Assembly: GCA_963847185.1 (NCBI GenBank)
Contig: CAWJYV010000007.1
Location: forward strand, 800,001 to 864,000
Length of the DNA: 64,000 bases
Direction: 5' to 3'
Origin: an uncultured Methanosarcinaceae archaeon
GTDB lineage: Archaea > Halobacteriota > Methanosarcinia > Methanosarcinales > Methanosarcinaceae
Both the position numbers and the translations under genes were made by a program. Below, in pieces: positions 37,833 to 53,562 of this stretch. The stretch's first letter is position 1. Every line of letters starts with the position of its first letter. Below the pieces are notes generated by a model. It searched no databases. It was given only the letters and a program-made list of their open reading frames with translations, and was not told where the DNA came from.

Positions 37833-40586
37833 ATGAGTAATAATCAGACTCCGGAGCAGAAGGCCAGAAATGATATTGATAGAAAGCTAAAAGATGCTGG
37901 CTGGGTAGTTCAGGAAAAAAGCAAGATTAAGTGGAATGCTTCCAGGGGAATTGCTGTTAAGGAGTATTTGACTGACGTGGGGCCTGCTGATTATGTATTA
38001 TTTGTTGATAAAAAGCCCGCTGGGATTATTGAGGCGAAAAGAGATGAAGAGGGTCACCGGTTAACCGTTGTTGAGGAACAATCTTCCGAATATGCTGCAA
38101 GCAAACTAAAGTACCTTAATAATGACCAGCTTCCTTTTGTTTACGAGAGTACAGGGGAACTTACCCGATTCACAGACTTTCGTGACCCTAAACCAAGGTC
38201 AAGAACCGTTTTTTCTTTTCTCCGGCCTGAGACCTTTGACGACTATCTTAATAAGAGACCTTTGAGAGAAAGGCTACTGGAAATTCCTGAATTAAGGACA
38301 GAAGGGCTGCGGGACTGCCAGATAACAGCAATTTCAAATCTTGAAAAATCCTTTCAGGACAACCGCCCGAGGGCTCTGGTCCAGATGGCAACAGGTTCAG
38401 GGAAAACCTATACTGCCATAACCTTTATCTATAGATTGCTGAAATTTGCGGATGCTAAAAAGGTGCTGTTCCTTGTTGATACTAAAAATCTTGGTGAGCA
38501 GGCAGAACAGGAATTCATGGCTTACGTACCAAATGATGATAACCGCAAATTTACCGAGCTGTACAATGTGCAGCGCTTGCGCTCAAGTTATATCTCTTCA
38601 GACAGCCAGGTGTGCATTTCAACAATCCAGCGGCTTTACTCTATATTGAAAGGCGAAGAGCTGGACGAGAAAGTTGAAGAAGAAAACCCTGCTGAAAGAG
38701 GCTGGCAGCCAAAGGAGCCTCTTCCTGTCGTATATAATGAAAAGGTTCCCATCGAAGAGTTTGATTTTGTTGTCATAGACGAGTGCCATCGCTCCATATA
38801 CAACCTGTGGCAGCAGGTACTTGATTATTTTGACGCGTTTTTGATAGGCCTGACAGCCACGCCGGACAAACGTACTTTCGGGTTTTTCAATGAAAACGTG
38901 GTGAGTGAGTACAGTCATGAAGATGCTGTGGCAGATGGCGTGAATGTGGGTTATGATGTGTACATGATCGAAACAGATATCAGCAAAAATGGGGGAAAGA
39001 TACCTGCTTACGAATATGTAGACAGGCGGGAGAAACTCACCCGTAAAAAGCGCTGGGAACAGCTGGACGAGGATTTCACCTATACTGCTAAAAAGCTGGA
39101 CGGGGACGTGGTCAATCCCAGCCAGATAAGACATGTGATACGAACATTTAAGGATAATCTGCCTGAGATCTTCCCTGGCAGAGAGGAAGTCCCAAAAACC
39201 CTGATTTTTGCCAAGAGCGACAGCCATGCCGATGATATTATCAATATATTGCGGGAAGAGTTTGGAGAAGGCAATGCTTTTTGCAAGAAAGTGACCTACA
39301 AAGCGGAAGAAGACCCAAAATCAGTGTTGTCAGCTTTTCGCAATGATTACAATCCCAGGATAGCAGTTACAGTGGACATGATTGCTACGGGTACGGATGT
39401 CAAGCCTCTGGAATGCCTGCTCTTTATGAGGGACGTCAAAAGCCTGAATTATTTTGAGCAAATGAAGGGCCGGGGTACGCGAACCCTGGGATATGATGAC
39501 CTGAAAAAGGTGACAAAATCGGCTGTTTCTGCCAAAACGCATTTTGTAATCGTAGACGCCGTTGGCGTTACAAAAACCCTGAAAACAGACAGCCGGCCTC
39601 TGGAACGCAAGAAAAGTACGTCTCTTAAAGACCTGCTTGCAGCAGTAACTTTTGGCGCTCAGGATGAAGATCTTTACGTTTCCCTGGCAAACAGGCTTGC
39701 AAGGCTGGGCAGGCAGATAAGTGAGGACGAAAGAGTTACTTTTGCCGAAAAAGCGAATGGAAAAACCCTCAATCAGACCGTGAAGGACCTTCTCAATGCA
39801 TATAACCCTGATATCATCGATCTCAAAGCTTCCGAGATTAAACAGAGGCAGCCGGAAATTCAGGAAGCCGATGCAAAGAAAAAAGCGCAGGAGAATTTGA
39901 TTGATATTGCCAGATCCACTTTTTCCGGCGAGCTGAACGAATATATTGAAAACGTTCGCAGGGTCCATGAGCAGATAATCGATACCGTGAACACTGACAC
40001 CCTTCTAAGAGCCGAATGGGACAAAGACGCTGTAGTAAGGGCAGATGAGCTAATCAGCGACTTTAAGGCATATCTGGAAGCTAACAAAGACGAGATTACA
40101 GCCCTGAGAATTTTCTATAACCAGCCCTACCAGCGTAGGGAAGTTACTTTCACAATGATAAAAGAAGTGCTGGCTAAACTGAAGCTGGAAAAGCCCCATT
40201 TTGCCCCCTTCAGGATCTGGCAGGCTTACGAGCAGCTGGAAAACGTGAACGGAAATTCTCCGAAAAATGAACTTACAGCTCTGGTTTCCCTGATCCGCAG
40301 GATTACCGAAATTGACCCTGTGCTAACAGCCTACGACCAGACCGTAAACAGGAACTTCCAGGACTGGGTGTTCAAAAAACAGGCAGGAACCCTGAAATTC
40401 AGCGAAGACCAGATGAACTGGCTCCGTATGATTAAAGAATATGTAGCAACCAGCTTCCATCTGGAAATAGACGACCTTGATTATACTCCCTTTGATGCTT
40501 TCGGCGGGCGCGGCAGGATGTATCAGCTTTTCGGAGACGAGATGAATATGGTTATCAGTGAATTGAATGATGTTCTGGCGGCTTAA
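37833..40586 (+). CDS. hsdR: Type I restriction enzyme R subunit (EcoAI/EcoEI-like)
   Basis: ADYVLF...IEAK nuclease motif, MATGSGKT, DECH, TATP, QMKGRGTR helicase motifs. Confidence 0.93.
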   Translation: MSNNQTPEQKARNDIDRKLKDAGWVVQEKSKIKWNASRGIAVKEYLTDVGPADYVLFVDKKPAGIIEAKRDEEGHRLTVVEEQSSEYAASKLKYLNNDQLPFVYESTGELTRFTDFRDPKPRSRTVFSFLRPETFDDYLNKRPLRERLLEIPELRTEGLRDCQITAISNLEKSFQDNRPRALVQMATGSGKTYTAITFIYRLLKFADAKKVLFLVDTKNLGEQAEQEFMAYVPNDDNRKFTELYNVQRLRSSYISSDSQVCISTIQRLYSILKGEELDEKVEEENPAERGWQPKEPLPVVYNEKVPIEEFDFVVIDECHRSIYNLWQQVLDYFDAFLIGLTATPDKRTFGFFNENVVSEYSHEDAVADGVNVGYDVYMIETDISKNGGKIPAYEYVDRREKLTRKKRWEQLDEDFTYTAKKLDGDVVNPSQIRHVIRTFKDNLPEIFPGREEVPKTLIFAKSDSHADDIINILREEFGEGNAFCKKVTYKAEEDPKSVLSAFRNDYNPRIAVTVDMIATGTDVKPLECLLFMRDVKSLNYFEQMKGRGTRTLGYDDLKKVTKSAVSAKTHFVIVDAVGVTKTLKTDSRPLERKKSTSLKDLLAAVTFGAQDEDLYVSLANRLARLGRQISEDERVTFAEKANGKTLNQTVKDLLNAYNPDIIDLKASEIKQRQPEIQEADAKKKAQENLIDIARSTFSGELNEYIENVRRVHEQIIDTVNTDTLLRAEWDKDAVVRADELISDFKAYLEANKDEITALRIFYNQPYQRREVTFTMIKEVLAKLKLEKPHFAPFRIWQAYEQLENVNGNSPKNELTALVSLIRRITEIDPVLTAYDQTVNRNFQDWVFKKQAGTLKFSEDQMNWLRMIKEYVATSFHLEIDDLDYTPFDAFGGRGRMYQLFGDEMNMVISELNDVLAA

Positions 40587-40616: not shown

Positions 40617-42053
40617 TTAAACGAAATGATAACCTCCGTCACTATATCTTACCAGAGTTGCATTTAGGTTATCGTCCAGCATAAGATTCTGGTTATTAAT
40701 AGAAACGCAAACGTCCATGTGAGTTCCATAAGTACGTTCAAATGAAGTTCTAACGAATGTGCAGTTAGTTAAATTTATCTGTGGAAAATCTTGATAATTT
40801 CTTGAATAGTGCTTATAGGTTCCATTCCTGAGAAATGCTATTTTTTCAACCACAGGTGTGTTAATTAGTTCCTCTCCAGTATCATCAATTGCAAAGAGAC
40901 TGTATGTATATGAGTCGCTATTTTTTACTGGAAGTGTTGTTATGTTTATTTCAGGTTTGACTTCTAATGCATAGACAATTTTGGTCCATCTGATGCCATT
41001 GAGAGAGGAGGGAGAAGATCTCATCATGTTTTCCGAATCTGCTTTATTGAGGAATTCAAATACACTTCTGTTTACCCACTTGCAAAAAGATGGAGCACCA
41101 TCACGGTTTAAGTCATATGTTTCTTCTGAATAGCCAAAAGCCGTTGCGTAATTGAAGCGTTCTGCCAGTCTTAAAGCTTCAATACTTTTTTCGAAAGAGG
41201 CTGAAGAAACAGGAGTTCCTTTATACATCAGTGAAAATGATTCATTGTACAGCGAATTAACCTGAAAAACCGCAGATCTGTTTATGGTTTGTCCGGGAGA
41301 TAGAGTCGTACTTTCAATTTTGTTTTCTTCTTTGAGGCTTGAAAGCACCTCCAGATGTGATCTTTCATAAAAACCGTAAGGATCCAGATTTGTAGTATTA
41401 AATATATGGTCCCCATCACGCAAATGAAGTTCATTTAATTTAAAATCGAGGTCCTTTGAACCATTATTCTTTATTGAAAGACCATATACCACGTAATACC
41501 TTTCATTGAGATTATATCCGAGTTTGCTTTCTGCGGGGTCCCCAGCACCACTGTATTCTTTAACTCTGTATATGCAAAGCTTGCCATTTTCCTTTTTTAC
41601 TTTTAATTGGATATCATTGGGGGTTATTAAAGCAGTTTTTCTATTGTCTGCAAGTTTTAGTTCCAGAGAATTGTTGTGCGTAAAAACACGGATAGTATTA
41701 TTGTCATAGGTTTTAATTATCTGTGCATTACTTACCCAATCAATTCCCAGATCATTCATGAGGTATTCGCTGAGGTTGTTACTTTCGTTACCTGGAACAT
41801 TATCCCAGCTAAACAGGTATCTTAATACATTTTCCGAATTATCATGCATATAAATGCTTGAAAAGGATGTCACTTCGATTTCAGGGATATTTTCCTCTTC
41901 ATATGATAGGCTTTCAGATGACAGGTTTTCTGGTGTTATATTTACTGAATCTTGATACGTTGATTTATTTGATTGTACGGCATTCTTTTCTTCAATGCAT
42001 CCGCTAAAAATAAGAAATATTATCAGAACAAATAATAGCATTCGCAATCCCAA
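40617..42053 (-). CDS. Hypothetical lipoprotein (DUF4352-like Ig fold region)
   Basis: Lipobox FSGC after a hydrophobic stretch; LSIKNNG...TLSPGQT...VFQV. Confidence 0.75.
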   Translation of the reverse strand: MGLRMLLFVLIIFLIFSGCIEEKNAVQSNKSTYQDSVNITPENLSSESLSYEEENIPEIEVTSFSSIYMHDNSENVLRYLFSWDNVPGNESNNLSEYLMNDLGIDWVSNAQIIKTYDNNTIRVFTHNNSLELKLADNRKTALITPNDIQLKVKKENGKLCIYRVKEYSGAGDPAESKLGYNLNERYYVVYGLSIKNNGSKDLDFKLNELHLRDGDHIFNTTNLDPYGFYERSHLEVLSSLKEENKIESTTLSPGQTINRSAVFQVNSLYNESFSLMYKGTPVSSASFEKSIEALRLAERFNYATAFGYSEETYDLNRDGAPSFCKWVNRSVFEFLNKADSENMMRSSPSSLNGIRWTKIVYALEVKPEINITTLPVKNSDSYTYSLFAIDDTGEELINTPVVEKIAFLRNGTYKHYSRNYQDFPQINLTNCTFVRTSFERTYGTHMDVCVSINNQNLMLDDNLNATLVRYSDGGYHFV

Positions 42054-42264
42054 TCATCCCTGCTTAATTCCAATGTTACGATATTCCCGAGATGTTTTTC
42101 TTCGTTTGCGACTCTAATATAGCATAATATAGCATATATGCCTTTATACAGTTCAAACTTTTGATTTAATCCCTGAAACATTGATCAAGAGAGTATATAA
42201 CTGACAATTTACAGGCAGAATTGGCAAAAAAACGAACTGAATTTATTACTCTCGATAATAATAG

Positions 42265-42280
42265 CGCCAGTCTTATATAC
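42265..42280 (+). promoter_or_regulatory. Putative BRE/TATA promoter of RNA array 1
   Basis: CGCCAGTCTTATATA about 30 nt before the terminal stem; conserved at the same spacing before array 2. Confidence 0.55.
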
Positions 42281-42302
42281 AGGAACTTACATATTATATA
42301 TT

Positions 42303-42869
42303 GTTCACAAGGAACTAAGCTGTAAAATGAAGCAAATTCAGGATAGCGTAAAACCTGATCCCGCAATGAACTTCATTGACGTACAAGCTTAAAATGAAGC
42401 AAATGCAGGACGGCTTGAAAACCGATCTCGAAATATACTTCATTGACGTACGAGCTTAAAATGGAGCAAATGCAGGACAGCCTGAAAACTGATCCCGAAC
42501 TCTACTCATTGACGCGTAAGCTATAAGGTGGAGCAAATTCAGGACGGCTTGAAAACCGATCCTATACTATACTTCACTGATGCTTTACTGCGAGATGGAG
42601 CAAATTCAGGACAGTCTGAAAGCTGACCCCGCAATGAACTTCATTGACGTGCGAGCTTGAAATGAAGCAAATTCAGGACAGAGTAAAATCTGATCCCGTA
42701 ATATACTTCATTGAAGTGTAAGCTGTAAAATGAGGCAAATTCAGGACGGTTTGAAAACCGATCTCGCAATCTACTTCATTGACGTACTAACTTAAAATGA
42801 AGCAGATTCAAGACAGGTTAAATTCTTACCCGCAATAAACTTCATTGTTGCAGACCAAGCCTTGTGAAC
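42303..42869 (+). ncRNA. Putative modular structured ncRNA, array 1 (8 x 67-nt hairpin units)
   Basis: Unit starts 42327, 42394, 42461, 42528, 42595, 42662, 42730, 42797; compensatory changes in two stems; terminal stem GTTCACAAGG/CCTTGTGAAC. The repeat is certain; transcription is inferred. Confidence 0.65.
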
Positions 42870-43150
42870 CCTTATTCACTCTTTTAATCAAAGTTAAAGC
42901 GTATAAATCTAGTTTCTCTTCCTTTATTGTTTTCTTATCTTTTCTTTTTTAATGGACACATTGATCTCGATGGTTACATGGCCTGCGAGAGGGTTTTTAT
43001 CTGAAATCAACACATTCTTTTGATTTTAATCCTATTTAGGACGATATTCAAGCTTATATGCTAAAAGAGAAACTTAGCGGCATTATTATAGCATATAAAG
43101 GTATTTGGAGCCTCTTTAGAAGGATGAAATTTAGTGAAATACTTAGATTG

Positions 43151-43301
43151 TCAGAATAAATATTAACATTCACAATCCCAATCATCCCCGGTTAATTTTC
43201 AGTGCTACAATGTTTTCGAGACTCTTTTTCTTCGTTTGTGACTCTAATACATGCATATATGCCTTTATCAGTTTAAATTTTTGATTAAATCGCTGAAAGA
43301 C
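43151..43301 (-). pseudogene. Decayed copy of the 5' end and upstream region of the lipoprotein gene
   Basis: Aligns by eye with 42023-42180 (TCAGAAYAAATA...CAATCCCAATCATCCC...TTTTTCTTCGTTTG); stop codons in frame. Confidence 0.55.
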
Positions 43302-43445
43302 ACAAGTAGACAATTATTTAATCAACTGACATCTTAAAAGTACTCCAAAATTGATAGTAAAGGTTCGGAGAAAGGTTCGGAGAAAAGTGCGGGGGAAGGC
43401 TCGGAGAAAAAAAAGGAGAAAATTTGGGCGATGGTTGGGAGAAAA

Positions 43446-45620
43446 TTAGTTACTTGATTTGGAAAGATATTTCAAATCGTTCTTCAGCACATTTTTCTTT
43501 GATTTAAAGTATTCCAATGACTTCTCCGGTTCTTCAGTAGTGACCTGTGCAAGTTTATCAGCTTCAATGCATTGTTGCTGTAAATTGACAATTTTAAGAT
43601 ATTTTTCTAATCTACTTTCACTGCCGGTGTTGAGATCATCTATTGAAATTAAAGCATCGGCTGGATAAATGCTTTCTAAATTATCTTTTACTGAATCAAA
43701 ACGATAGTATCCATAATCATCCACATTCAGTAATCTCTTTGTGTTTCTTGAAATATTCTTCATGGATTTGAGTTTTTCGTAAAACTCGGGGTTTCTTTTA
43801 GGACCGGAATGGATTCCTCCAAGACTATCCAGACCATAACCAAACCCTAAAATATCCCTTGCTGATAGCACTTTCTGGTCATTAATTGATTTGCCATAAC
43901 TAACATTTACAAAATGAAATAGATGATTTTCTTCATATCCTCTTTTGGTAAGTTCTCTTTTCATTGCATTTAACATATCTATATGGGTTGTAATCATGCT
44001 GCTGTCAAAATCAATATAGTAAGCATTGATTCCTTTGTCAAGGTAATAATTTATGAGTTCCCTGCCGAAAAGAGGGGCTGTTGCAGGTATGTATCCCATA
44101 ATGTTTTTCTTGTTTCTGATTTCGATGCTATCGTAGCATGAATCTAAATATTCTATGAAAGCATCAAAGTTTTCAACGTTCAAATTTCTGGCTACTTTAG
44201 GAACTGAAGGAATTGGGGTTATATCCGAATGTGAGTATGCAAAGTTAGTCAGGATGTCAATTTCTTTTTCTGTGGGATATCTTATTCCTTGCTTATTTTA
44301 AAAAGAAGAGAAGAATGTTGATTGATGAGAGATTATATCTCCCACAAAAATGGATTGATGATAAGGTACGTTGTTTAAAGGCTAAAGTTCCTCTTGAAGA
44401 GATTAAATTCCGAACCAAGCATGAGCTTGGTCTTGAAATGATTGATAATGCAATAGAAGAAGGTATTCCTTTTTCCTATGTTACAATGGATGGATTCTAC
44501 GGTGAAAATCCGGAGTTGTTGACAGAACTTGAAATTAGAGGTTTAACTTTTGTTGCAGACATAGCTGTCGATACTCTTGTTTATATTGAGGAACCAGTTG
44601 CTGAGATACCTGCGAAAAAGGGAATAAGAGGAAGAAAACCCACTATCCCCAAGGTTTTGAATACATTATCAACAAGAGTAGATTCTCTTTCCAATTCAGT
44701 TGAGGGATGGGAACTTATCAATGTTAGAAAAACGGAAAGAGGGTATAAAAAAGTCTATTTTAAGGCTATAAAAGTTTGGAGACGTCAGAATAAATTACCT
44801 TGTGAGAAGCCGGTATGGCTTCTTATAAGTAAAGATTCAGAATCAAATGAAATTAAATATTCACTATGTAACGCCTCTGAAGATACATCATTCGATAAAC
44901 TTGCAAAAATGCAGAGTTCAAGGTATTGGATTGAGAGAGCATTTCAAGATGCGAAAGGAGACTGTGGAATGGCAGAATACATGGTGAGAAATTGGAATGC
45001 GTGGCACCATCATATGGCATTAGTAATGCTTGCAATGCTTATTTTACTCTCCTATCAGAAAAAATTCAACAAAATGTATAAGATGTCAATTCCTGGAGTT
45101 TTATGGATACTGAAGTACCATAATCCATTGAAAAGAATCGATGCTCGGGAAATTGCAGGAATCTTAAATCAAGATAATGAGTTGAGAAGGAAAGCAAGGG
45201 TTAGCAGATTAAGAAGTTCATAATAATTTTCTGATTGGAATAAATGGATTCGTGTTCCGACGACTGGTAAGTATACAATTTTGACAGGAAACTCCAATTT
45301 TCTCCTTTATTCTTAAATTCCAATAGGCAGAAGTAAGGGCACCCATTAGCTTTTTCTTTTTCCCTTTTTAATTGCTTGTTTTTGTCGGATGAGAATTTTA
45401 AGTCCTGATCTTTTTTTATTAGAGATTCCTCATCGAATTTCAAAAAGAGCTCCTGTAAGTCACAAAGTTCCTTTGGAAAAGAAGTATCTTTGTAGAAACT
45501 GTTTGTTGCAATCGCTTTAGTTGGTGTTTTCAGTTCTTTGTTCCCGATTTGCACCTGTAAACTTCTTAAATCAGTATCATCAGCAATCGAACACAGATGA
45601 ATTTTCGTTTCTTTTGTCAT
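43446..45620 (-). pseudogene. Hypothetical ~387-aa protein (possible TIM-barrel/TGT-like fold) interrupted by an IS701 fragment
   Basis: 45292-45620 + 43446-44280 = 1164 nt, rejoining in frame as ...ENWRYPTEKE...; ATG overlaps the PIN gene stop (ATGA). Confidence 0.75.
44283..45291 (+). mobile_element. 5'-truncated IS701-family element (transposase C-terminal part, ORF 44315-45223)
   Basis: FLAY...LIDERLYLP, DGFYG, RYWIERAFQDAKGDCG, WNAWHHHMAL; no N-terminus or left TIR. Confidence 0.85.
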
Positions 45621-46114
45621 CTTAACAATTCCTTGAGAATATCTTCTCTTATCCAGAAAGAAGAACATTTTATGCTGTCGTATATTTCTTTACACTCATC
45701 ACTTGTGAGCTCATTAAGTTTCTCTTTTTGCCATAAGAGTAAACCTATAGTCCCATTTACTTTTACACCATATTTTGACTTCAACTGCCTTGCTCTTTCA
45801 TCAATGATGCAGCGATAACTGTCTCCAGATTGTTCTTTTTCTATGCCGGCACAGAGGACACTGACCTCTCCATCATGCAACCAGGGATAACGCTTTGAAA
45901 TTTTTGATATGCATTGTTCATCAACGTTATCTATAACCAAAAAGCCTTCGTAAGCCTTGAGTAATTTGAATGTTTCAGGGTTTTTTCTAAGCTCTTCATA
46001 TACTTGCTTTGTAACAGACAAATTATACCCGTGTTTTTTGCAGATTTCAAAAGCTTTCGGAAAGTTAGCTTCCCGAAGCAAGCAGACAATTGAGGAGGCA
46101 TCAAATATTTTCAT
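45617..46114 (-). CDS. PIN-domain ribonuclease (DUF3368/COG2405-like toxin)
   Basis: IFDASSI, LHDGEVSVL, IIDERAR, VNGTIGLL. Confidence 0.82.
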   Translation of the reverse strand: MKIFDASSIVCLLREANFPKAFEICKKHGYNLSVTKQVYEELRKNPETFKLLKAYEGFLVIDNVDEQCISKISKRYPWLHDGEVSVLCAGIEKEQSGDSYRCIIDERARQLKSKYGVKVNGTIGLLLWQKEKLNELTSDECKEIYDSIKCSSFWIREDILKELLR

Positions 46115-46119
46115 GTTTT

Positions 46120-46692
46120 TTACCTCCTCTGCAAATCAAGAAAAGTTTCGATATTTACGCCTGCAAGAAAAGCAGCTTTTTCCAAACTAACGATTCCTTT
46201 TTTGTAGATGGAAATCGAGTTTTTAACCCTTGATTTCATTATTCTGCGATATTCGGTTGATTCAACGGTAAAATCAGGATATGAAGCATAGATAAAAAGA
46301 AGAATTTCGTCATTGGTGAGATTGCTCATAAATTCTTTGAAGTCTTCAATGGATTCTTTTTCTTCCGGTGAGAAGAGATCTTGCTTCAGACCCAATACCT
46401 TGATACCCAAAGGAGTGATTTTGTAAGTATTGCCCTCTTTTTTTTCAACAAGACCCATTGATACCAGGTTATCCATGCTAACTTCTGAAGCTTCACTATA
46501 TGGACCAAGAGAATGAGGAATGAATTCTGCCCTTTCATTCACTTTATCAATGTAATTCGATATCAGAAACATTTCTTTTTGAAAAGCAACGTTTCCTTTT
46601 ACCGGTTTTTCATCGTCCACTTTCAATAATTCAAGTATAGCAACGCTTAAAGGAGAAAGATCCTCTGCGATACTATCTAATGAAAATCTCAA
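46120..46692 (-). CDS. Antitoxin-like protein: YwgA/SocA(Panacea)-like wHTH fused to UPF0175 HTH
   Basis: FQKEMFL...FIPHSLGPYSE N-domain; C-terminal IYKKGIVSLEKAAFLAGVNIETF. Confidence 0.65.
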   Translation of the reverse strand: MRFSLDSIAEDLSPLSVAILELLKVDDEKPVKGNVAFQKEMFLISNYIDKVNERAEFIPHSLGPYSEASEVSMDNLVSMGLVEKKEGNTYKITPLGIKVLGLKQDLFSPEEKESIEDFKEFMSNLTNDEILLFIYASYPDFTVESTEYRRIMKSRVKNSISIYKKGIVSLEKAAFLAGVNIETFLDLQRR

Positions 46693-47167
46693 TCTGTATC
46701 CCCCTTAAGCTTTAATTCGATGCTCGTTGCTATTTGAAATAGTATTTTCTTTTTCAAAGGATATACGACTATATTTTATAATACTTCTCATTATTATATC
46801 TCTTACAAACTCTTGAGCGGAAACTCAATCCAACTTCAGCATTATAAATTATTTTCTCTCAAATTCTTCTTTTATTTCGTGTGGAATACTTTTTTACTCT
46901 ATTTTTGAGATTCTTTTTCTTCGTTTGTACTTGTAATACAGATATATATGTTGTATATTGTTTAAATTTTTGATTACATCTCAGAAAGTCACAAAAAGTG
47001 TTTTTTGCTCGAAATGTGGTTCGACATTTGAAAAACCAACGTAGAAATTTTAAAGAAAGTTATAGAGAAAAGAAAGAACCTCAAAATCATCTGTTTAGTT
47101 CAATGAAAGTTCCAAAAGAGAACTGTTATATAAATTAAGTTCTTTTAAAAACTCACGGAGAACTCAG

Positions 47168-48685
47168 ATGACTGATACTGAAAATTCACAGAAGCCCCCT
47201 GTAGGATGGCGCTGGACAACTATTGGAGATGTTAGTGAGGTAAAAGGTGGTAAACGTCTACCAAAAGGACATGACTACTCTGAAACTCCTACAGTTTTTC
47301 CATATATAAGGGTTACTGATTTCGAAAATATGAGTATCAATCTGGGATCACTAAAATTTTTGAATTCTTCTACTCAAAAACACATCAGTAATTATACGAT
47401 TTCAAAAAATGATATCTACATTTCCATTGCAGGATCAATTGGGAAAGTTGGATTGATTCCCGTAAAATTAGATGGTGCAAATTTAACCGAAAATGCAGCT
47501 AAAATTACTGATCTAGGAAGCATAGATAGAAAGTTTTTATGTTATGTTCTTACTTCTATACAATCCCAAGAGCAAATTAAAAAATTCACTATTTCATCAA
47601 ATCAACCCAAATTAGCTTTGTTCAGAATTAAGCAGATAAATATTCCTCTTCCGCCTCTTCCAGAACAATCCGCTATAGTCTCAAAAATCGAACAACTTTT
47701 CAGCGAACTGGACAACGGCATTTCCAACCTCAAACTGGCACAGGAGCAGCTCAAGGTTTATCGGCAGGCGGTGCTGAAGAAAGCATTTGAGGGGGAACTT
47801 ACCAAAAAATGGCGGGAGCAGCAGGCAGATTTGCCTGATGCAGAGGATTTGCCGGAGCAAATCAAAAATGAAAGAGAGAAAGTTGCCAAGGTCTCTGATA
47901 AAAAACAGAAAGCAATTAAATCGCTTAATGAAACTGAATTAGCAGAGTTGCCAAAAATACCAGAAGAATGGAAATGGGTAAAAACTGCTGATATTATTGA
48001 TCCAATAAACAATGGTTATACACCAAAAGCCAATTTCCTTTCATCTGGATCAGGCGAAGTTCCTTTCATCAAAGTTTATAATTTGAATTTTGATGGATCA
48101 TTTAATTTTCAAAAAGATCCAACTTTTATTCCAAAAATAATTCATCAAAAGGAGCTTGCAAGATCGGTTACCTATCCAGGAGATGTCCTAATAAACATCG
48201 TAGGACCACCTTTGGGAAAAGTATCTATTGTAAGTGGTCAATTTCCTGAATGGAATATTAACCAAGCTATTGTGCTATTTAGACCTAACAAATGGGTGAC
48301 AACAAAATTAATTTCATATTATCTCCAAAATTCTAAAACAATTCAATGGCTAAAAAATACATCTAAAGCCACAGCTGGCCAGTTTAATGTAAAGGTTTCG
48401 ACCTGCCGTGAAATCCCCTTTCCTCTTTTTTCAATTGAAGAACAAAAAGCCATCGTTCAGGAAATCGAAACCCGCCTTTCAGTCTGCGATAAGATAGAGC
48501 AGGATATCAAAGAGAATCTGGAAAAAGCCGAAGCACTGCGGCAGAGTATTTTGAAAAAAGCGTTTGAGGGGAAGTTGCTTAATGAAAGGGAACTGGCAGA
48601 AGTTCGAAAGGCAGAGGATTGGGAACCGGCTGAGGTTTTGCTGGAAAGAATAAAGGCTGAAAGAGCTAGAAATGGGAAAAACTGA
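47168..48685 (+). CDS. hsdS: Type I R-M specificity subunit
   Basis: PPVGWRW, PLPPLPEQSAIV and IPEEWKW conserved regions, two TRDs, QSILKKAFEGKL. Confidence 0.95.
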   Translation: MTDTENSQKPPVGWRWTTIGDVSEVKGGKRLPKGHDYSETPTVFPYIRVTDFENMSINLGSLKFLNSSTQKHISNYTISKNDIYISIAGSIGKVGLIPVKLDGANLTENAAKITDLGSIDRKFLCYVLTSIQSQEQIKKFTISSNQPKLALFRIKQINIPLPPLPEQSAIVSKIEQLFSELDNGISNLKLAQEQLKVYRQAVLKKAFEGELTKKWREQQADLPDAEDLPEQIKNEREKVAKVSDKKQKAIKSLNETELAELPKIPEEWKWVKTADIIDPINNGYTPKANFLSSGSGEVPFIKVYNLNFDGSFNFQKDPTFIPKIIHQKELARSVTYPGDVLINIVGPPLGKVSIVSGQFPEWNINQAIVLFRPNKWVTTKLISYYLQNSKTIQWLKNTSKATAGQFNVKVSTCREIPFPLFSIEEQKAIVQEIETRLSVCDKIEQDIKENLEKAEALRQSILKKAFEGKLLNERELAEVRKAEDWEPAEVLLERIKAERARNGKN

Positions 48686-48741
48686 GGGTGCAATTGAGGG
48701 TGCAATTGAGGGTGCAATTGAGGGTGCAATTGAGGGAGCAA
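48683..48741. repeat. 12-bp tandem repeat (TGAGGGTGCAAT) x4 + 1 imperfect
   Basis: Directly visible; the first TGA is the hsdS stop. Confidence 0.9.
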
Positions 48742-48795
48742 AAATATAGACTACAGAATAAAAGATACCTCCGGCTGGTCAAATGATACAGAAAT

Positions 48796-48903
48796 TACCT
48801 CTCAAGCTGCCCCCAAGCTACCCTGAAAGCTACCCCGCAAGTTACCCCGCAAGCTGCTCCCCAAGTTACCCTGCAAGCTACCCCGCAAGTTACCGAGCAA
48901 GTT
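48796..48903. repeat. Degenerate 12-bp tandem repeat (TACCCCGCAAGY), about 9 copies
   Basis: Reads as TPQV/TPQA repeats with frameshifts. Confidence 0.8.
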
Positions 48904-48979
48904 GTCAATAGATCTTGAAAATTAAGTTCCGTAAGGAAGTAAAAACAAAAATATCACTCTCATTTCAAGGATCCAAATC

Positions 48980-50476
48980 ATGTCTGAAAATACCTCATCC
49001 ATCGTTTCCAAAGTCTGGAGCTTCTGCAACGTCCTCAGGGACGGGGGCGTGAGCTATGGAGATTATCTGGAGCAGTTGACTTATCTCATATTCCTGAAAA
49101 TGGCTGAAGAGTACAGGAAGCCGCCTTACAACAGGAATATCGGGATTCCGGAAGAATACACATGGGATAAATTGAAACAGCAGAGGGGAGCAGAACTCGA
49201 TACTCACTACAAGGAGCTTCTGGAAGAACTGGGGAAAAAGCCCGGGATGCTCGGGCAGATTTTCCTCAAAGCCCAGAACAAGGTCAGTGACCCTGCTATG
49301 CTCTACAAGATCATTGATATGATCGACAAGGAAAGCTGGGTCATGATGGGTGTGGATACAAAAGGAGAGATCTACGAAGGGCTCCTGCAGAAGAATGCAG
49401 AGGATACAAAAAGCGGAGCCGGGCAGTACTTCACCCCCAGGCCGCTCATCAAAGCAATGGTCCAGTGCCTGAAGCCCGAACCCATGAAAACAATAGGAGA
49501 CCCCTGCTGTGGTACAGGCGGGTTCTTTTTGGCAGCTTACGACTTCCTTACATCACACCACCGGCTGGATCGGGAACAGAGCCGTTTTCTGAAAAACAAA
49601 ACTTTTGGCGGTAATGAAATAGTTGCAGGTACCCGACGGCTTGCTCTCATGAATATGTTCCTGCACAACATCGGGGAGATTGACGGAGAGCCCATGATCT
49701 CAAATTCCGATGCTCTCATAGCAGATCCTGGTTATCGTTACGATTACATCCTTACAAATCCCCCTTTTGGAAAAAAAAGTAGCATGACCTTCACAAACGA
49801 AGAAGGCGAGCAGGAAAAAGAAGATTTAACTTACAACCGTCAGGACTTCTGGACAACTACAAGCAACAAGCAGCTTAACTTTTTGCAGCATATCCACACT
49901 ATCCTCAAAACCGGCGGGCAGGCAGCAGTTGTATTGCCTGACAATGTCCTGTTTGAAGGTGGAGCAGGAGAAACCATTCGCAAAAAGCTTCTTGAAACTA
50001 CGGACCTGCACACAATCCTGCGCCTGCCAACAGGCATTTTCTATGCAAATGGCGTAAAGGCAAATGTGCTCTTTTTTGAAGCGAAATCCGCATCAAAAGA
50101 GCCCTGGACAAAAGAAGTGTGGATATACGACTACCGTACAAATGTACATCATACCTTGAAAAAGAATCCGATGAAATATTCGGATCTTGAAGACTTCATC
50201 AAATGCTACAATCCCGAAAACCGGCACAGCCGTACAGAGACCTGGAGTGAAGAAGCTCCAGAGGGCAGGTTCCGGAAATTCAGCTATGAAGAAGTTGCAT
50301 CAAGGGATAAAACGAATCTGGATATCTTCTGGCTCAAAGACAAAAGCCTGGCTGATCTGGACAACCTCCCGGACCCTGATATTCTCGCAAATGAAATTAT
50401 AGAGAATATGGAGGCTTCACTGGCAAGTTTCAAGGAGATTATGGCCACAATTAACGGGGAAAGTGAAGAGAATTGA
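48980..50476 (+). CDS. hsdM: Type I R-M N6-adenine methyltransferase
   Basis: GAGQYFTPR, DPCCGTGGF, TNPPFG, LRLPTGIFYA. Confidence 0.96.
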   Translation: MSENTSSIVSKVWSFCNVLRDGGVSYGDYLEQLTYLIFLKMAEEYRKPPYNRNIGIPEEYTWDKLKQQRGAELDTHYKELLEELGKKPGMLGQIFLKAQNKVSDPAMLYKIIDMIDKESWVMMGVDTKGEIYEGLLQKNAEDTKSGAGQYFTPRPLIKAMVQCLKPEPMKTIGDPCCGTGGFFLAAYDFLTSHHRLDREQSRFLKNKTFGGNEIVAGTRRLALMNMFLHNIGEIDGEPMISNSDALIADPGYRYDYILTNPPFGKKSSMTFTNEEGEQEKEDLTYNRQDFWTTTSNKQLNFLQHIHTILKTGGQAAVVLPDNVLFEGGAGETIRKKLLETTDLHTILRLPTGIFYANGVKANVLFFEAKSASKEPWTKEVWIYDYRTNVHHTLKKNPMKYSDLEDFIKCYNPENRHSRTETWSEEAPEGRFRKFSYEEVASRDKTNLDIFWLKDKSLADLDNLPDPDILANEIIENMEASLASFKEIMATINGESEEN

Positions 50477-50493
50477 AAATCAGAGTTTTGCCG

Positions 50494-50537
50494 GTGCACA
50501 CCATTGCAGGCAACGGGGTATGTTCGCTCCACCGCTC
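50494..50537. repeat. Short palindromic element resembling IS200/IS605-type end hairpins
   Basis: ACACCATTGC-AG-GCAACGGGGTAT imperfect hairpin followed by GTTCGCTCCACCGCTC. Confidence 0.35.
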
Positions 50538-50630
50538 AGGTCATAATGAACTATAAAAAATCGATTATTTTCATTTGTTTGCATGCTTCTGCAAAAAATG
50601 AATTGATTGAATAATCAGTAGTAATATAAT

Positions 50631-50646
50631 CGCCAGTATTTTATAT
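50631..50646 (+). promoter_or_regulatory. Putative BRE/TATA promoter of RNA array 2
   Basis: CGCCAGTATTTTATAT, homologous to 42265-42280. Confidence 0.55.
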
Positions 50647-50668
50647 TAATAATTCCATAATATATATT

Positions 50669-50932
50669 GGTCACAAGGAAGTAAGCTGTAAAATGGAGCA
50701 AATTCAGGGCAGATTAAAACCTGATCCCGAAATAACTTCATTAACGCGTAACTTCATTAACGCGTAAGCTGTAAATGGAGCAAATTCAGGGCAGATTGAA
50801 ACCTGATCCCGAAATACACTTCATTAACGCGTAACTTCATTAACGCGTAAGCTGTAAATGGAGCAAATTCAGGACAGATTGAAACCTGATCCCGAAATGA
50901 ACTTCATTGTTGCAGTTCAAACCTTGTGAACC
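50669..50932 (+). ncRNA. Putative modular structured ncRNA, array 2 (3 units)
   Basis: Unit starts 50693, 50775, 50858; same unit consensus and terminal stem (GGTCACAAGG/CCTTGTGAACC) as array 1. Confidence 0.62.
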
Positions 50933-51033
50933 ACCTTATCAACTCTTTTAATCAACGCTAAAGCGCATAGATATATCTTTTTTCATCTTTTTCCGTTTTT
51001 TCCATCTTTCACTTGCTTTTCTCACTTTTCGTT

Positions 51034-51387
51034 CCGGGCAGCTTTTCCTAAAGCTCAGAACTAGTGAAGGCGGATCCGGAGAAATAATCCGCAAAGAATT
51101 TCTTGAAAACACAGGCTTTCACACAATCCTGCGCCTGTCGACAGGTATTTTCTGTGCAAATGGCTAACGGCAAATATGCTCTTTTTTGAAACTTCAGTTA
51201 TGATGAAATTGTAGAAGGGATAAAACGAATCTGGATATATTCTGGCTCAAAGACAGAAGCCTGGCTGATCTGACAACATTCCAGACCGTGATATTCTCGC
51301 AAATGAGATTATAGAGAATATGGGGGCATTTCTGGCAAGTTTCAAGGAAATATGCCCACAATTAACGGGGAAAGCGAAGATAATTGA
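51034..51387 (+). pseudogene. hsdM: Internally deleted, degenerate hsdM relic
   Basis: Three segments match hsdM at about 49252-49283, 49954-50080 and 50277-50476, with frameshifts and stops. Confidence 0.8.
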
Positions 51388-51598
51388 AATCTGCTTAAGT
51401 AAATCTAAAACGGTAGTTAGTTAGATACGGTAGTTAGTTAGATCTGAGCCTCACTACCTTTTAACCTTAACAGTTAACCCCACTATCTTTTAACCTTAAC
51501 CATTTAAGTATTGATATAATTTTTCTTAAAATGCCAGAATTCTTCTTAAAATGCTAAATTTCGAGTTCTGAAAATTACCGTAAAAGGAAGGCAATCAT

Positions 51599-52510
51599 AT
51601 GAAAGAGAATCAAGCTAGCATTTCTGCAATGATGACCGCTTACATTCGTGCTCATCATTCAATGAATGATACTCCTAAAATTTTTGATGACTTTCTGGCC
51701 TATCGTTTGATACCGCCAGAGGTACGGACATTGATTGAACAGGGTTTTAAGAGGAATGAACATTTCAAAGATTCTGAACGTACTGAATCACTCTCTGGCC
51801 AGACGACTAATTATGCTTCCTTAATGAAAACAACAAACGTTCTCAGCCGTGCACGATACACGGAAGACGCTTTAGAGAAGGCTGTCACGCAGGGAGTAAA
51901 ACAATATGTGATCCTTGGGGCGGGAATGGATACCTTTGCATTTCGGCGGCCGGAAATGATGGATTGTTTGGAAGTGTTTGAGGTTGACCACCCAGCCACA
52001 CAGAATTTCAAGCTTCTTCGCCTTGCAGAGTTGGGATGGGAACATCCAGCAAAATTACATTTCATTCCTATAGATTTCACAAAAGAAAATCTAGTGACTG
52101 CACTCACTCGCTCATCAGATTATGACCCTAATGCTAAAAGCTTCTTTAGCTGGCTTGGTGTCACCATGTACCTGACTCGAGAAGAAGTATTTGATACACT
52201 TCGCTCTATCACTGATATTGCCCCCGAGGGCAGTATAGTTGTTTTCGATTACTTTGATGCAGATGCATTTATTCCCGAAAAATCATCCCCAATAATGCAA
52301 AAGAAGCAGGCCATTTTCCAAAAGATGGGTGAAAAAATGATTACAGGTTTTGATCCTTCTACTCTGGCCAAAGATATTGCAAGTTTAGGATTGCATATCC
52401 ATGAGAACTTGAGCCCGGAAGATATCGAAAAACGTTATTTCCAGGGACGCATGGACGGATATCATGCTTCTGAGCATGGACACATTGCATATGCAATAAC
52501 TGAAAAATGA
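51599..52510 (+). CDS. SAM-dependent methyltransferase (LCM/TIGR00027-like)
   Basis: QYVILGAGMDTFAFR, FEVDHPATQ, WLGVTMYL. Confidence 0.92.
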   Translation: MKENQASISAMMTAYIRAHHSMNDTPKIFDDFLAYRLIPPEVRTLIEQGFKRNEHFKDSERTESLSGQTTNYASLMKTTNVLSRARYTEDALEKAVTQGVKQYVILGAGMDTFAFRRPEMMDCLEVFEVDHPATQNFKLLRLAELGWEHPAKLHFIPIDFTKENLVTALTRSSDYDPNAKSFFSWLGVTMYLTREEVFDTLRSITDIAPEGSIVVFDYFDADAFIPEKSSPIMQKKQAIFQKMGEKMITGFDPSTLAKDIASLGLHIHENLSPEDIEKRYFQGRMDGYHASEHGHIAYAITEK

Positions 52511-52698: not shown

Positions 52699-53562
52699 TC
52701 ACTTACTTTTTACAATAATATAATTAGACATTGTTTTAGTATTATTTCCGGCAGCGTTGCCTACTGTTAAGCTGACAGTGTAATTTCCGGCTTTAGTGTA
52801 TTTGTGTACTGGGTTCATCTGTACTGAAGAAGTGTTATCCCCAAAATTCCATTTCCATGAAGTGTGAACGCCTGTGCTCTTGTCAGTAAACTGAACCTTC
52901 AGAGGTGCCTTCCCAGCTTTCGGATATGCATTAAAATTAGCAACCGGAGCTTTCAAAGCATTGACAACAATATAGTTAGACTTTGTTATAGTATTATTTC
53001 CGGCAGCATTACCTACGGTTAAGCTCACAGTGTAGTTTCCGGCTTTAGTATACTTGTGTACAGGGTTCTTTTCTTTTGAATAGGTCCCGTCTCCAAAGCT
53101 CCATTTCCAGGAAGTGTGAATGCCTGTGCTTTTGTCAGTAAACGCTACTTTCAGGGGTGCATATCCTGATGTCGGGCGTGCGGAAAAAGCAGCAACCGGA
53201 GCTTTCAGAGCATTAACAACAATATAGTTGGATTTTGTTTTAGTATTGTTTCCGGCAGCGTTCTTTACAGTTAAACTGACAGTGTAATTTCCGGCTTTAG
53301 TGTATTTGTGTACAGGATTTTTAGATGTTGAATAGGTTCCATCTCCAAAACTCCATTTATATGAATTATGAAGTCCTGTACTTTTGTCAGAAAACGCTAC
53401 CTTCAAGGGTGCGTACCCTGAGGTTGAATGTGCAGAAAAAGCAGCAACAGGTGCCTTTAAAAGAACTTTTGCATTTGAATTGTTCTGTGGGGCTGCAAGT
53501 GCAGTCGCAGACAATAAAATCATGCTAATTAATATAATGAAGATTTTCTGTTTTATATTCAT
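52699..53562 (-). CDS. Secreted protein with three PKD repeats
   Basis: Signal peptide; 3x APVAxF...WxFGD...NPVHKYTKAGNYTVSLTV. Confidence 0.92.
   Translation of the reverse strand: MNIKQKIFIILISMILLSATALAAPQNNSNAKVLLKAPVAAFSAHSTSGYAPLKVAFSDKSTGLHNSYKWSFGDGTYSTSKNPVHKYTKAGNYTVSLTVKNAAGNNTKTKSNYIVVNALKAPVAAFSARPTSGYAPLKVAFTDKSTGIHTSWKWSFGDGTYSKEKNPVHKYTKAGNYTVSLTVGNAAGNNTITKSNYIVVNALKAPVANFNAYPKAGKAPLKVQFTDKSTGVHTSWKWNFGDNTSSVQMNPVHKYTKAGNYTVSLTVGNAAGNNTKTMSNYIIVKSK

Follow-up and report, generated by a model that had tools for sequence, protein, structure and literature searches.

A candidate family of modular structured RNAs built from tandem 67-nt hairpin units in Methanosarcinaceae

Two loci in the window, by which we mean the whole 64,000-nt stretch of DNA analysed here, are very probably genes for a structured non-coding RNA that has not been described before. 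The first consists of eight tandem units of ~67 nt enclosed by a 10-bp closing helix (42303-42869, + strand). The second, smaller gene of the same family (50622..51010, + strand) was recognised through repeat searches and matches to a covariance model. This conclusion is drawn from sequence comparison, namely from the anatomy of the two loci, from covariation in related genomes and from the coding and family searches described below.

Anatomy and range of the probable RNA genes

An earlier note on this DNA had described locus 1 as a tandem array of 67-nt hairpins inside a terminal stem, and both direct reading and Tandem Repeats Finder (42317-42816, period 67, 7.4 copies) confirm that layout. 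The closing helix pairs a 5′ strand, GTTCACAAGG (42303-42312, +), with a 3′ strand, CCTTGTGAAC (42860-42869, +), and the CTGTAA and TTGCAG elements that the note had matched to each other are read at 42320-42325 and 42848-42853. Within the closing helix, repeats and matches of the covariance model R1 in the organism's own genome place the eight hairpin units at 42324..42850 (+): units 1-4 occupy 42324-42390, 42391-42457, 42458-42524 and 42525-42591, and units 5-8 occupy 42592-42658, 42659-42726, 42727-42793 and 42794-42850. The base-pair exchanges noted earlier are likewise present, both in the inner stem (CGG/CCG in units 2, 4 and 7; CAG/CTG in units 3, 5 and 6) and in the outer stem of unit 4 (GTGGAG/CTTCAC).

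The sequence upstream of locus 1 has the appearance of a promoter. A TATA-like box, CTTATATA, can be read directly at 42272-42279 (+), ~25 nt 5′ of the closing helix, and the distance between the two is constant in all loci compared. Given the established spacing between TATA boxes and start sites in archaea, we infer that transcription of locus 1 starts at ~42298-42302. In an alignment of 15 loci of the long-array subfamily, conservation defines an upstream region (42176..42271, +) and reaches ~150 nt 5′ of the closing helix. This region includes an imperfect palindrome (~42244-42261), which in relatives reads ATTAC-N5-GTAAT, and at 42263-42270 the motif AGCGCCAG; the same motif, ACCGYCAG, is found 5′ of the TATA box in other genera too. 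The palindrome is operator-like, and both it and the ACCGCCAG motif are conserved upstream of the TATA box. At the other end of the gene, a conserved 3′ tail beginning CCTTATTCACTCTTTT is followed by a T-rich tract (together 42870..42950, +), an arrangement kept in the 15 loci and in locus 2. The T-rich tract of locus 1 spans 42914-42950 and is presumed to be an archaeal oligo-T terminator.

Locus 2 repeats this plan with fewer units. Its promoter region (50622-50668, +) precedes a closing helix (50669-50678 with 50922-50932, +) and three R1 matches (50690-50756, 50772-50839 and 50855-50922, +), after which come the tail and a T-rich tract. Promoter and tail, which the earlier note had called conserved at the second locus, do recur there, as does the closing helix (repeat families D4, D11 and D12). 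Two of the three units carry a 16-nt linker duplication, and Tandem Repeats Finder reported the array as 50681-50908 with a period of 83 and 2.7 copies. One apical loop of this locus (50700-50712) reads AUUGAAAC, as do loops of units in L020, L023 and L028, the consensus loop being only NNURAAAN; in many archaeal crRNAs, AUUGAAAC forms the 8-nt 5′ handle. When the complete 4.04-Mb assembly was searched with BLAST, only these two loci were found, and the element is therefore not a dispersed repeat. A miniature inverted-repeat element (MITE), which many dispersed copies would have indicated, was rejected on this count and for want of any inverted-repeat pair in 41500-52000.

A BLAST query with the 706-nt locus hit 66 of the 151 genomes that had been sampled within its taxonomic family, with 1-6 matches per relative genome: 28/34 in g1, 6/6 in g13, 20/34 in g4 and 7/11 in g16. 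Weak matches in g12 and g5 covered the T-rich tail only. The covariance search of archaeal genomes proposed in the earlier note was carried out with R1, which was built from 102 units. Of 151 genomes chosen from the whole order, 29 contained units; all of these belong to family f1 (28/48), against 0/102 genomes of five sister families. The titles of public records with arrays that match R1 name Methanosarcinaceae, Methanosarcina or Methanosarcinales. We conclude that the RNA family is confined to four genera of one methanogen family, as far as searched. A looser two-unit pattern matched 21 viral contigs, R1 matched 0/21 of these, and a viral origin was rejected. The same pattern matched eight times with a 132-nt period at 6275-7274 of L390, a record titled Emticicia soli; with 0 R1 matches, this array was set aside as an unrelated bacterial tandem repeat. 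Scans with single 15-mers gave, among the matches listed, mostly one-off chance matches.

Every locus examined has a TATA-type promoter preceded by a conserved motif, a closing helix, two-helix units whose loops are near-invariant, and a short oligo-T tail, and in the long-array subfamily the leader and tail are near-identical across species and across two genera. What differs is the number of units, from 1 to 12 per locus, in agreement with the variable copy number foreseen for the internal domain. The units at either end of an array are specific to their position, whereas the subtypes in its interior have been duplicated and shuffled; copy number varies through unit duplication and loss. Even single-unit genes retain promoter, closing helix and tail.

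Fold, covariation and strand

Each unit can be written as two helices, an outer one of 7 bp (AAUGAAG/CUUCAUU) and an inner one of 6 bp from which a single A bulges. The internal loop between them has 8 nt in its 5′ strand and 9-11 nt in its 3′ strand, and the apical loop reads NNURAAAN. RNAalifold, given 102 units from 31 loci, returned the same 13-pair fold that had been written down independently. In this alignment 97.3% of 1315 cells pair, a value reached by 0/500 shuffles, and sliding the partner by one column lowers pairing to 44-56%. The stem covariation first seen in the window holds in larger, cross-genus alignments: in a set of 70 distinct units drawn from four genera, both sides change in 9 of the 13 pairs and 0/500 shuffles equal this, with the caveats that the 70 units derive from 92 model hits, that their alignment (A2) was fitted to the model, and that related sequences can beat shuffles without any structure. 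Among close relatives, stem variation is mostly one-sided, from A-U to G-U, and only pair 22-34 strongly covaries (AU 61, GC 27); its changes track unit subtypes and are therefore not independent events. Conservation extends outside the helices, at least 13 unpaired positions being at least 90% conserved across the 102 units.

The predicted structure of whole RNAs agrees with that of single units. For 16 complete three-unit RNAs, RNAalifold returned three hairpins within a closing helix of 11 bp, and possibly a further helix between linkers, with 96.8% of cells paired and 14 of 53 pairs covarying. It also predicted the closing helix for four single-unit RNAs, genes of this kind being expected to fold into one ~120-nt rod; 99.4% of the closing-helix cells are paired.

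Thermodynamic folding of individual sequences counts against the structure. The eight single units of the window fold weakly (MFE -5.6 to -14.9 kcal/mol, z +0.01 to -2.67), and the consensus outer helix appears in only 4/8 of their MFE folds. For the whole array, the opposite strand has the lower MFE (-200 vs -161 kcal/mol for the + strand) and also the lower z-score. Such an outcome is to be expected where a repeat is rich in U and has many pairing registers open to it, but it does not support structure; since every unit can pair with every other, MFE folding of the whole array is uninformative. In the alignment, G-U combinations outnumber A-C combinations by 154 to 19 among the 1315 cells, A-C being what G-U would become if the opposite strand were the RNA. 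We conclude from this excess, from the TATA box upstream and from the T-tracts downstream that the + strand is the RNA.

The regular head-to-tail layout of the units, and the conserved ACGCGU-like core of the linkers between them, would also be expected of a precursor that is cut in its linkers into ~67-nt hairpin RNAs acting singly, in the manner of ToxI repeats, crRNAs or polycistronic snoRNAs; the role of the closing helix would then be only to stabilise or mark the precursor. Adjacent linkers can pair in the whole three-unit RNAs (96.9% of cells) and could form a processing helix. However, closing helix, leader and tail are kept at every locus, even in single-unit genes, where there is nothing to excise; at the first unit and at the last, one of the two linkers is incomplete; and no nuclease gene is consistently adjacent. 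We consider a precursor array unlikely.

Genomic neighbourhood and rearrangements

Both arrays of the window belong to a type I restriction-modification (R-M) island. Upstream of array 1 and on the same strand lies hsdR, which encodes a restriction subunit of 917 aa (37833..40586, +; Pfam ResIII, EcoEI_R_C and HSDR_N; PADLOC REase_I). Further downstream are hsdS (47168-48685, +; Pfam Methylase_S) and hsdM (48980-50476, +; Pfam N6_Mtase and HsdM_N), and array 2 begins ~190 nt 3′ of hsdM. A two-gene module between hsdR and hsdS (45617-46114 and 46120-46692, together 45617..46692, - strand) matches the PADLOC candidate defence systems PDC-S70 (E 4.9e-10) and PDC-M19A (E 4.2e-13), with weak DUF3368 (PIN-like) and UPF0175 matches. 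The earlier note had spoken of a neighbouring PIN nuclease; the ORF at 45617-46114 does match DUF3368, but weakly (E 0.0018) and below Pfam's cut-off. The PDC-S70-like pair is found again near 7-8 arrays, in one case at a distance of just 34 nt. Another neighbour, a 478-aa protein encoded at 40617-42053 (-), has an N-terminal hydrophobic segment and homologues that adjoin 5-7 arrays; it matched no Pfam, NCBIfam or PADLOC family.

To place the two loci in a wider context we compared the 20-kb regions round 41 chosen arrays, mostly from complete genomes, together with the window's two; these 43 are a non-random sample from match lists, and related genomes among them are not independent. Within this sample, 12 of the 17 arrays with at least five units lie within 3 kb downstream of a same-strand hsdR homologue (7 full-length, 5 fragments), whereas only 1 of the 26 arrays with at most four units lies downstream of an hsdR homologue, and that is an hsdR fragment. 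The usual order in the islands is hsdR, array, variable cargo, hsdS, hsdM. The cargo includes a secreted-looking protein of 450-480 aa without a Pfam family, the PDC-S70-like pair and a Schlafen/AlbA_2 protein. A second subfamily, with 1-4 units, is syntenic in six genomes, where the permease gene of an ABC-2 transporter precedes it by 208-1130 nt and a gene for a B12-binding domain faces it in convergent orientation; the genome under study has no ABC-2 transporter of the kind found at these loci. The loci of g4 and g16 have no neighbour in common, and no neighbour is conserved across genera. We conclude that the R-M link is real but partial: it belongs to one paralogous lineage, being a genomic linkage of the long-array subfamily with the hsdR...hsdS-hsdM island that is not family-wide. 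This is the outcome of the gene-neighbourhood comparison suggested in the earlier note.

This linkage, and the fact that the longest arrays are those of the islands, bear on a possible role in defence, as an antitoxin, decoy or controller of type I R-M or of the PIN-like/UPF0175 (PDC-S70-like) pair, the recurrence of which beside arrays points in the same direction. The wider comparison is harder to reconcile with such a role. There is no homologue of the window's R-M system within 8 kb of 26 of the 43 arrays, and a defence function leaves aside the ABC-2-linked loci of six genomes and the g4 and g16 loci. In g4, the RNA is present in 20/34 genomes and the HsdR type in 18/34, and the 9 genomes that have both are about what chance would give. 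Moreover, HsdS varies between loci (37-47% identity) whereas the array units remain constant. Nor did the organism's own genome contain a ToxN-family gene, a comparison in which the control genomes also gave no positive. We regard a defence-linked regulator as quite unlikely, and the functional ties to the R-M system and to the PIN-like gene that the earlier note had entertained are not borne out in that form.

The islands also bear marks of rearrangement. The 3′ third of hsdM is present again, in decayed form, directly after array 2 (51065..51389, +; direct repeats D5, D7, D9 and D13), where it is 81-97% identical to 49954-50478. Comparable C-terminal hsdM fragments occur no more than 350 nt downstream of four other arrays (L065, L067, L077 and L084), three of which have only hsdR fragments upstream. 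Recombination between direct-oriented arrays flanking hsdS-hsdM would leave such fragments. Array 1, for its part, sits between diverged copies of the 5′ region of a neighbouring gene (D6, D8 and D10). Three diverged copies of one promoter/5′-leader region, with 61-89% identity, were observed on the - strand, at 42019-42185, 43147-43305 and 46895-46994; the first heads the 478-aa gene, the second heads only a short remnant facing array 1, and the third is upstream of the PDC-S70-like pair. The remnant that faces the array is also present in L065, L069, L075 and L077, and may drive antisense transcription into the 3′ end of the array.

Other repeats were seen near the arrays. The 295-nt gap between hsdS and hsdM holds two 12-nt tandem arrays, TGAGGGTGCAAT (48683-48741, 4.9 copies) and CAAGCTACCCCG (48795-48901, 7.8 copies), which could affect hsdM expression or be slippage-prone. 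A further 12-nt tandem repeat, AAAGGTTCGGAG (43359-43409, 4.2 copies), occurs in longer runs beside the arrays of L081, L070 and L074; these islands may thus carry another type of repeat along with them. A 252-nt tandem repeat at 52712-53463 (three copies) is ordinary, corresponding to PKD-domain repeats of the ORF at 52699-53562.

Direct-oriented arrays on either side of cargo, hsdS and hsdM, the decayed hsdM fragment after array 2, the four further arrays with the pattern of an array-by-array deletion, and the position of array 1 between diverged copies of a 5′ region would all fit an element that acts at the level of DNA, as recombination handles or cassette boundaries for hsdS-hsdM or as tandem protein-binding sites, any RNA being incidental. 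Such an element would not account for the compensatory changes, for the fact that G-U exceeds A-C by 154 to 19, for the conserved promoter and terminator, or for the non-island and single-unit loci, and a second array follows hsdM in only 2 of the 4 loci where this could be judged. We consider an element of this kind very unlikely to account for the family.

Coding potential, proposed mechanism and known systems

In six of the eight window units, an ATG or GTG is followed by an in-frame stop 19-21 codons on. Across 329 units, however, an ORF of 18-26 codons is kept in 184 and broken in 145, and 32 units stop at codon 3, after two codons. Indels of a single base put the subfamilies in different frames although their nucleotides are conserved, and variable columns fall on all three codon positions. 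Because the per-unit ORFs are broken in so many units, we conclude that the units are not coding; that each is a mini-gene for a ~21-residue peptide (MKQIQD...FIDV.A in the window) is hardly credible, since a weak GGAG-like stretch precedes the first unit but the internal units have no Shine-Dalgarno-like sequence.

Searches for known RNA classes agree with the earlier impression that the array fits no recognised family. Rfam 15 gave 0 matches at gathering scores in the 64-kb window, and with permissive filters only four matches in 42200-43000, with E values of 2-9 and scores of 13.6-18.3 bits vs thresholds of 36-79. Units resembling tRNA were rejected, ARAGORN having found 0 genes in 42000-51500. 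The units are conserved over their full length and hence have no spacers, which upholds the view that this is not a CRISPR array; annotation of the ORFs around both arrays (35032-55744) revealed no cas gene, and a crude repeat finder detected no CRISPR array in the organism's own genome and none near its Cas1 fragments, which are decayed and lie elsewhere. A literature search of full texts found no description of such an RNA, though supplementary sRNA and small-ORF tables might list the transcript, and passages of PMC4152357 and PMC11456600 do not mention one.

Paired ends, a U-rich 3′ end, near-invariant unpaired bases, a variable number of modules and an operator-like upstream motif are together consistent with a multivalent platform. 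The RNA would start a few bases before the 10-11-bp closing helix that joins its 5′ and 3′ ends, continue through 1-12 modules of ~67 nt and finish with a short tail and oligo-T tract. It would act as a stable multivalent platform, a sponge or scaffold, in which each module offers one identical, putatively sequence-specific binding site to a protein or RNA partner. Module copy number would set binding capacity, and the conserved upstream promoter motif would make the level of the RNA subject to regulation. We scanned the organism's own genome for complements of three loop or stem motifs with up to two mismatches; each gave 215-355 background matches, with no pattern. As a whole, an undescribed family of structured RNA genes serving as a multivalent platform is our best explanation, to which we give a little less than even confidence. 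The sponge or scaffold mechanism by itself is possible but doubtful. More specifically, the island-borne arrays of 5-12 units might titrate a co-encoded nuclease or R-M component and so control type I restriction or the PIN-like/UPF0175 pair, with the arrays that flank hsdS-hsdM serving as homology handles for loss or exchange of specificity cassettes; we would give this proposal little weight at present.

Several known systems share features with the family. CRISPR arrays can have a similar tandem period of ~67 nt and a defence-island setting, but they have unique spacers, which are absent here, and no Rfam CRISPR-DR model matched at E <= 10. Box C/D sRNAs were considered and rejected: RUGAUGA occurs in 0/182 units, and CUGA, found in 119/182, lies mid-unit within the inner helix; Rfam C/D models reach only E >= 3 on array 1. 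Archaeal H/ACA guide sRNAs offer a closer architectural parallel, with one to several hairpins of ~65-75 nt, in each of which a large internal loop separates a lower from an upper helix. In the present units, however, ACA stands directly 3′ of the lower helix in only 10/182 and ANA in 12/182, the consensus being GACG. The count of 0/182 for the box C-like RUGAUGA applies here too, the geometry of a K-turn in the upper helix having been inspected by eye. The pockets are also near-identical rather than target-specific, with internal-loop bases at least 90% conserved, and up to 12 hairpins are joined in one RNA.

The ToxI antitoxins of type III toxin-antitoxin systems resemble the island-borne arrays in being tandem RNA repeats in a defence island. 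ToxI repeat units are ~36 nt long, whereas those described here are 67 nt, are enclosed by a closing helix and also occur as single-unit and non-island copies. No ToxN/CptN/TenpN-like gene is adjacent: the arrays have their own terminator, followed by convergent or unrelated genes, and no co-directional ORF is conserved downstream of them. The ToxN profile PF13958 gave 0 matches in the organism's own genome, and likewise 0 in the 14 control genomes.

The closest functional analogy, if the RNA works as we propose, would be with the CsrB/RsmZ-type protein-sponge sRNAs of bacteria, in which multiple GGA motifs presented in hairpin loops bind CsrA/RsmA. As in CsrB and RsmZ, the RNA described here has an independent gene with a regulated-looking promoter and a terminator, a single motif presented many times over on hairpins, more than one paralogue per genome, these differing in repeat number, and no coding capacity. 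Unlike CsrB and RsmZ, its unit consensus lacks a GGA motif in the loop, its modules are two-helix structures of 67 nt rather than short stem-loops and are enclosed by a closing helix, and its host is an archaeon; archaea are not known to encode CsrA. We know of few structured regulatory RNAs in archaea beyond guide RNAs and a handful of sRNAs. Against that background, this would be a family-wide archaeal RNA class that is unusual and naturally tunable in its architecture, with 1 to 12 identical modules in one closing helix, and that has a regulated-looking promoter as well as paralogues within type I R-M islands. Should the island copies act on defence genes, they would represent control of type I restriction at the level of RNA. 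Model Methanosarcina strains are genetically tractable, so the RNA family should be easy to test; and if its modules bind protein, it would be the first RNA of the sponge type known from archaea and would give access to a new regulator.
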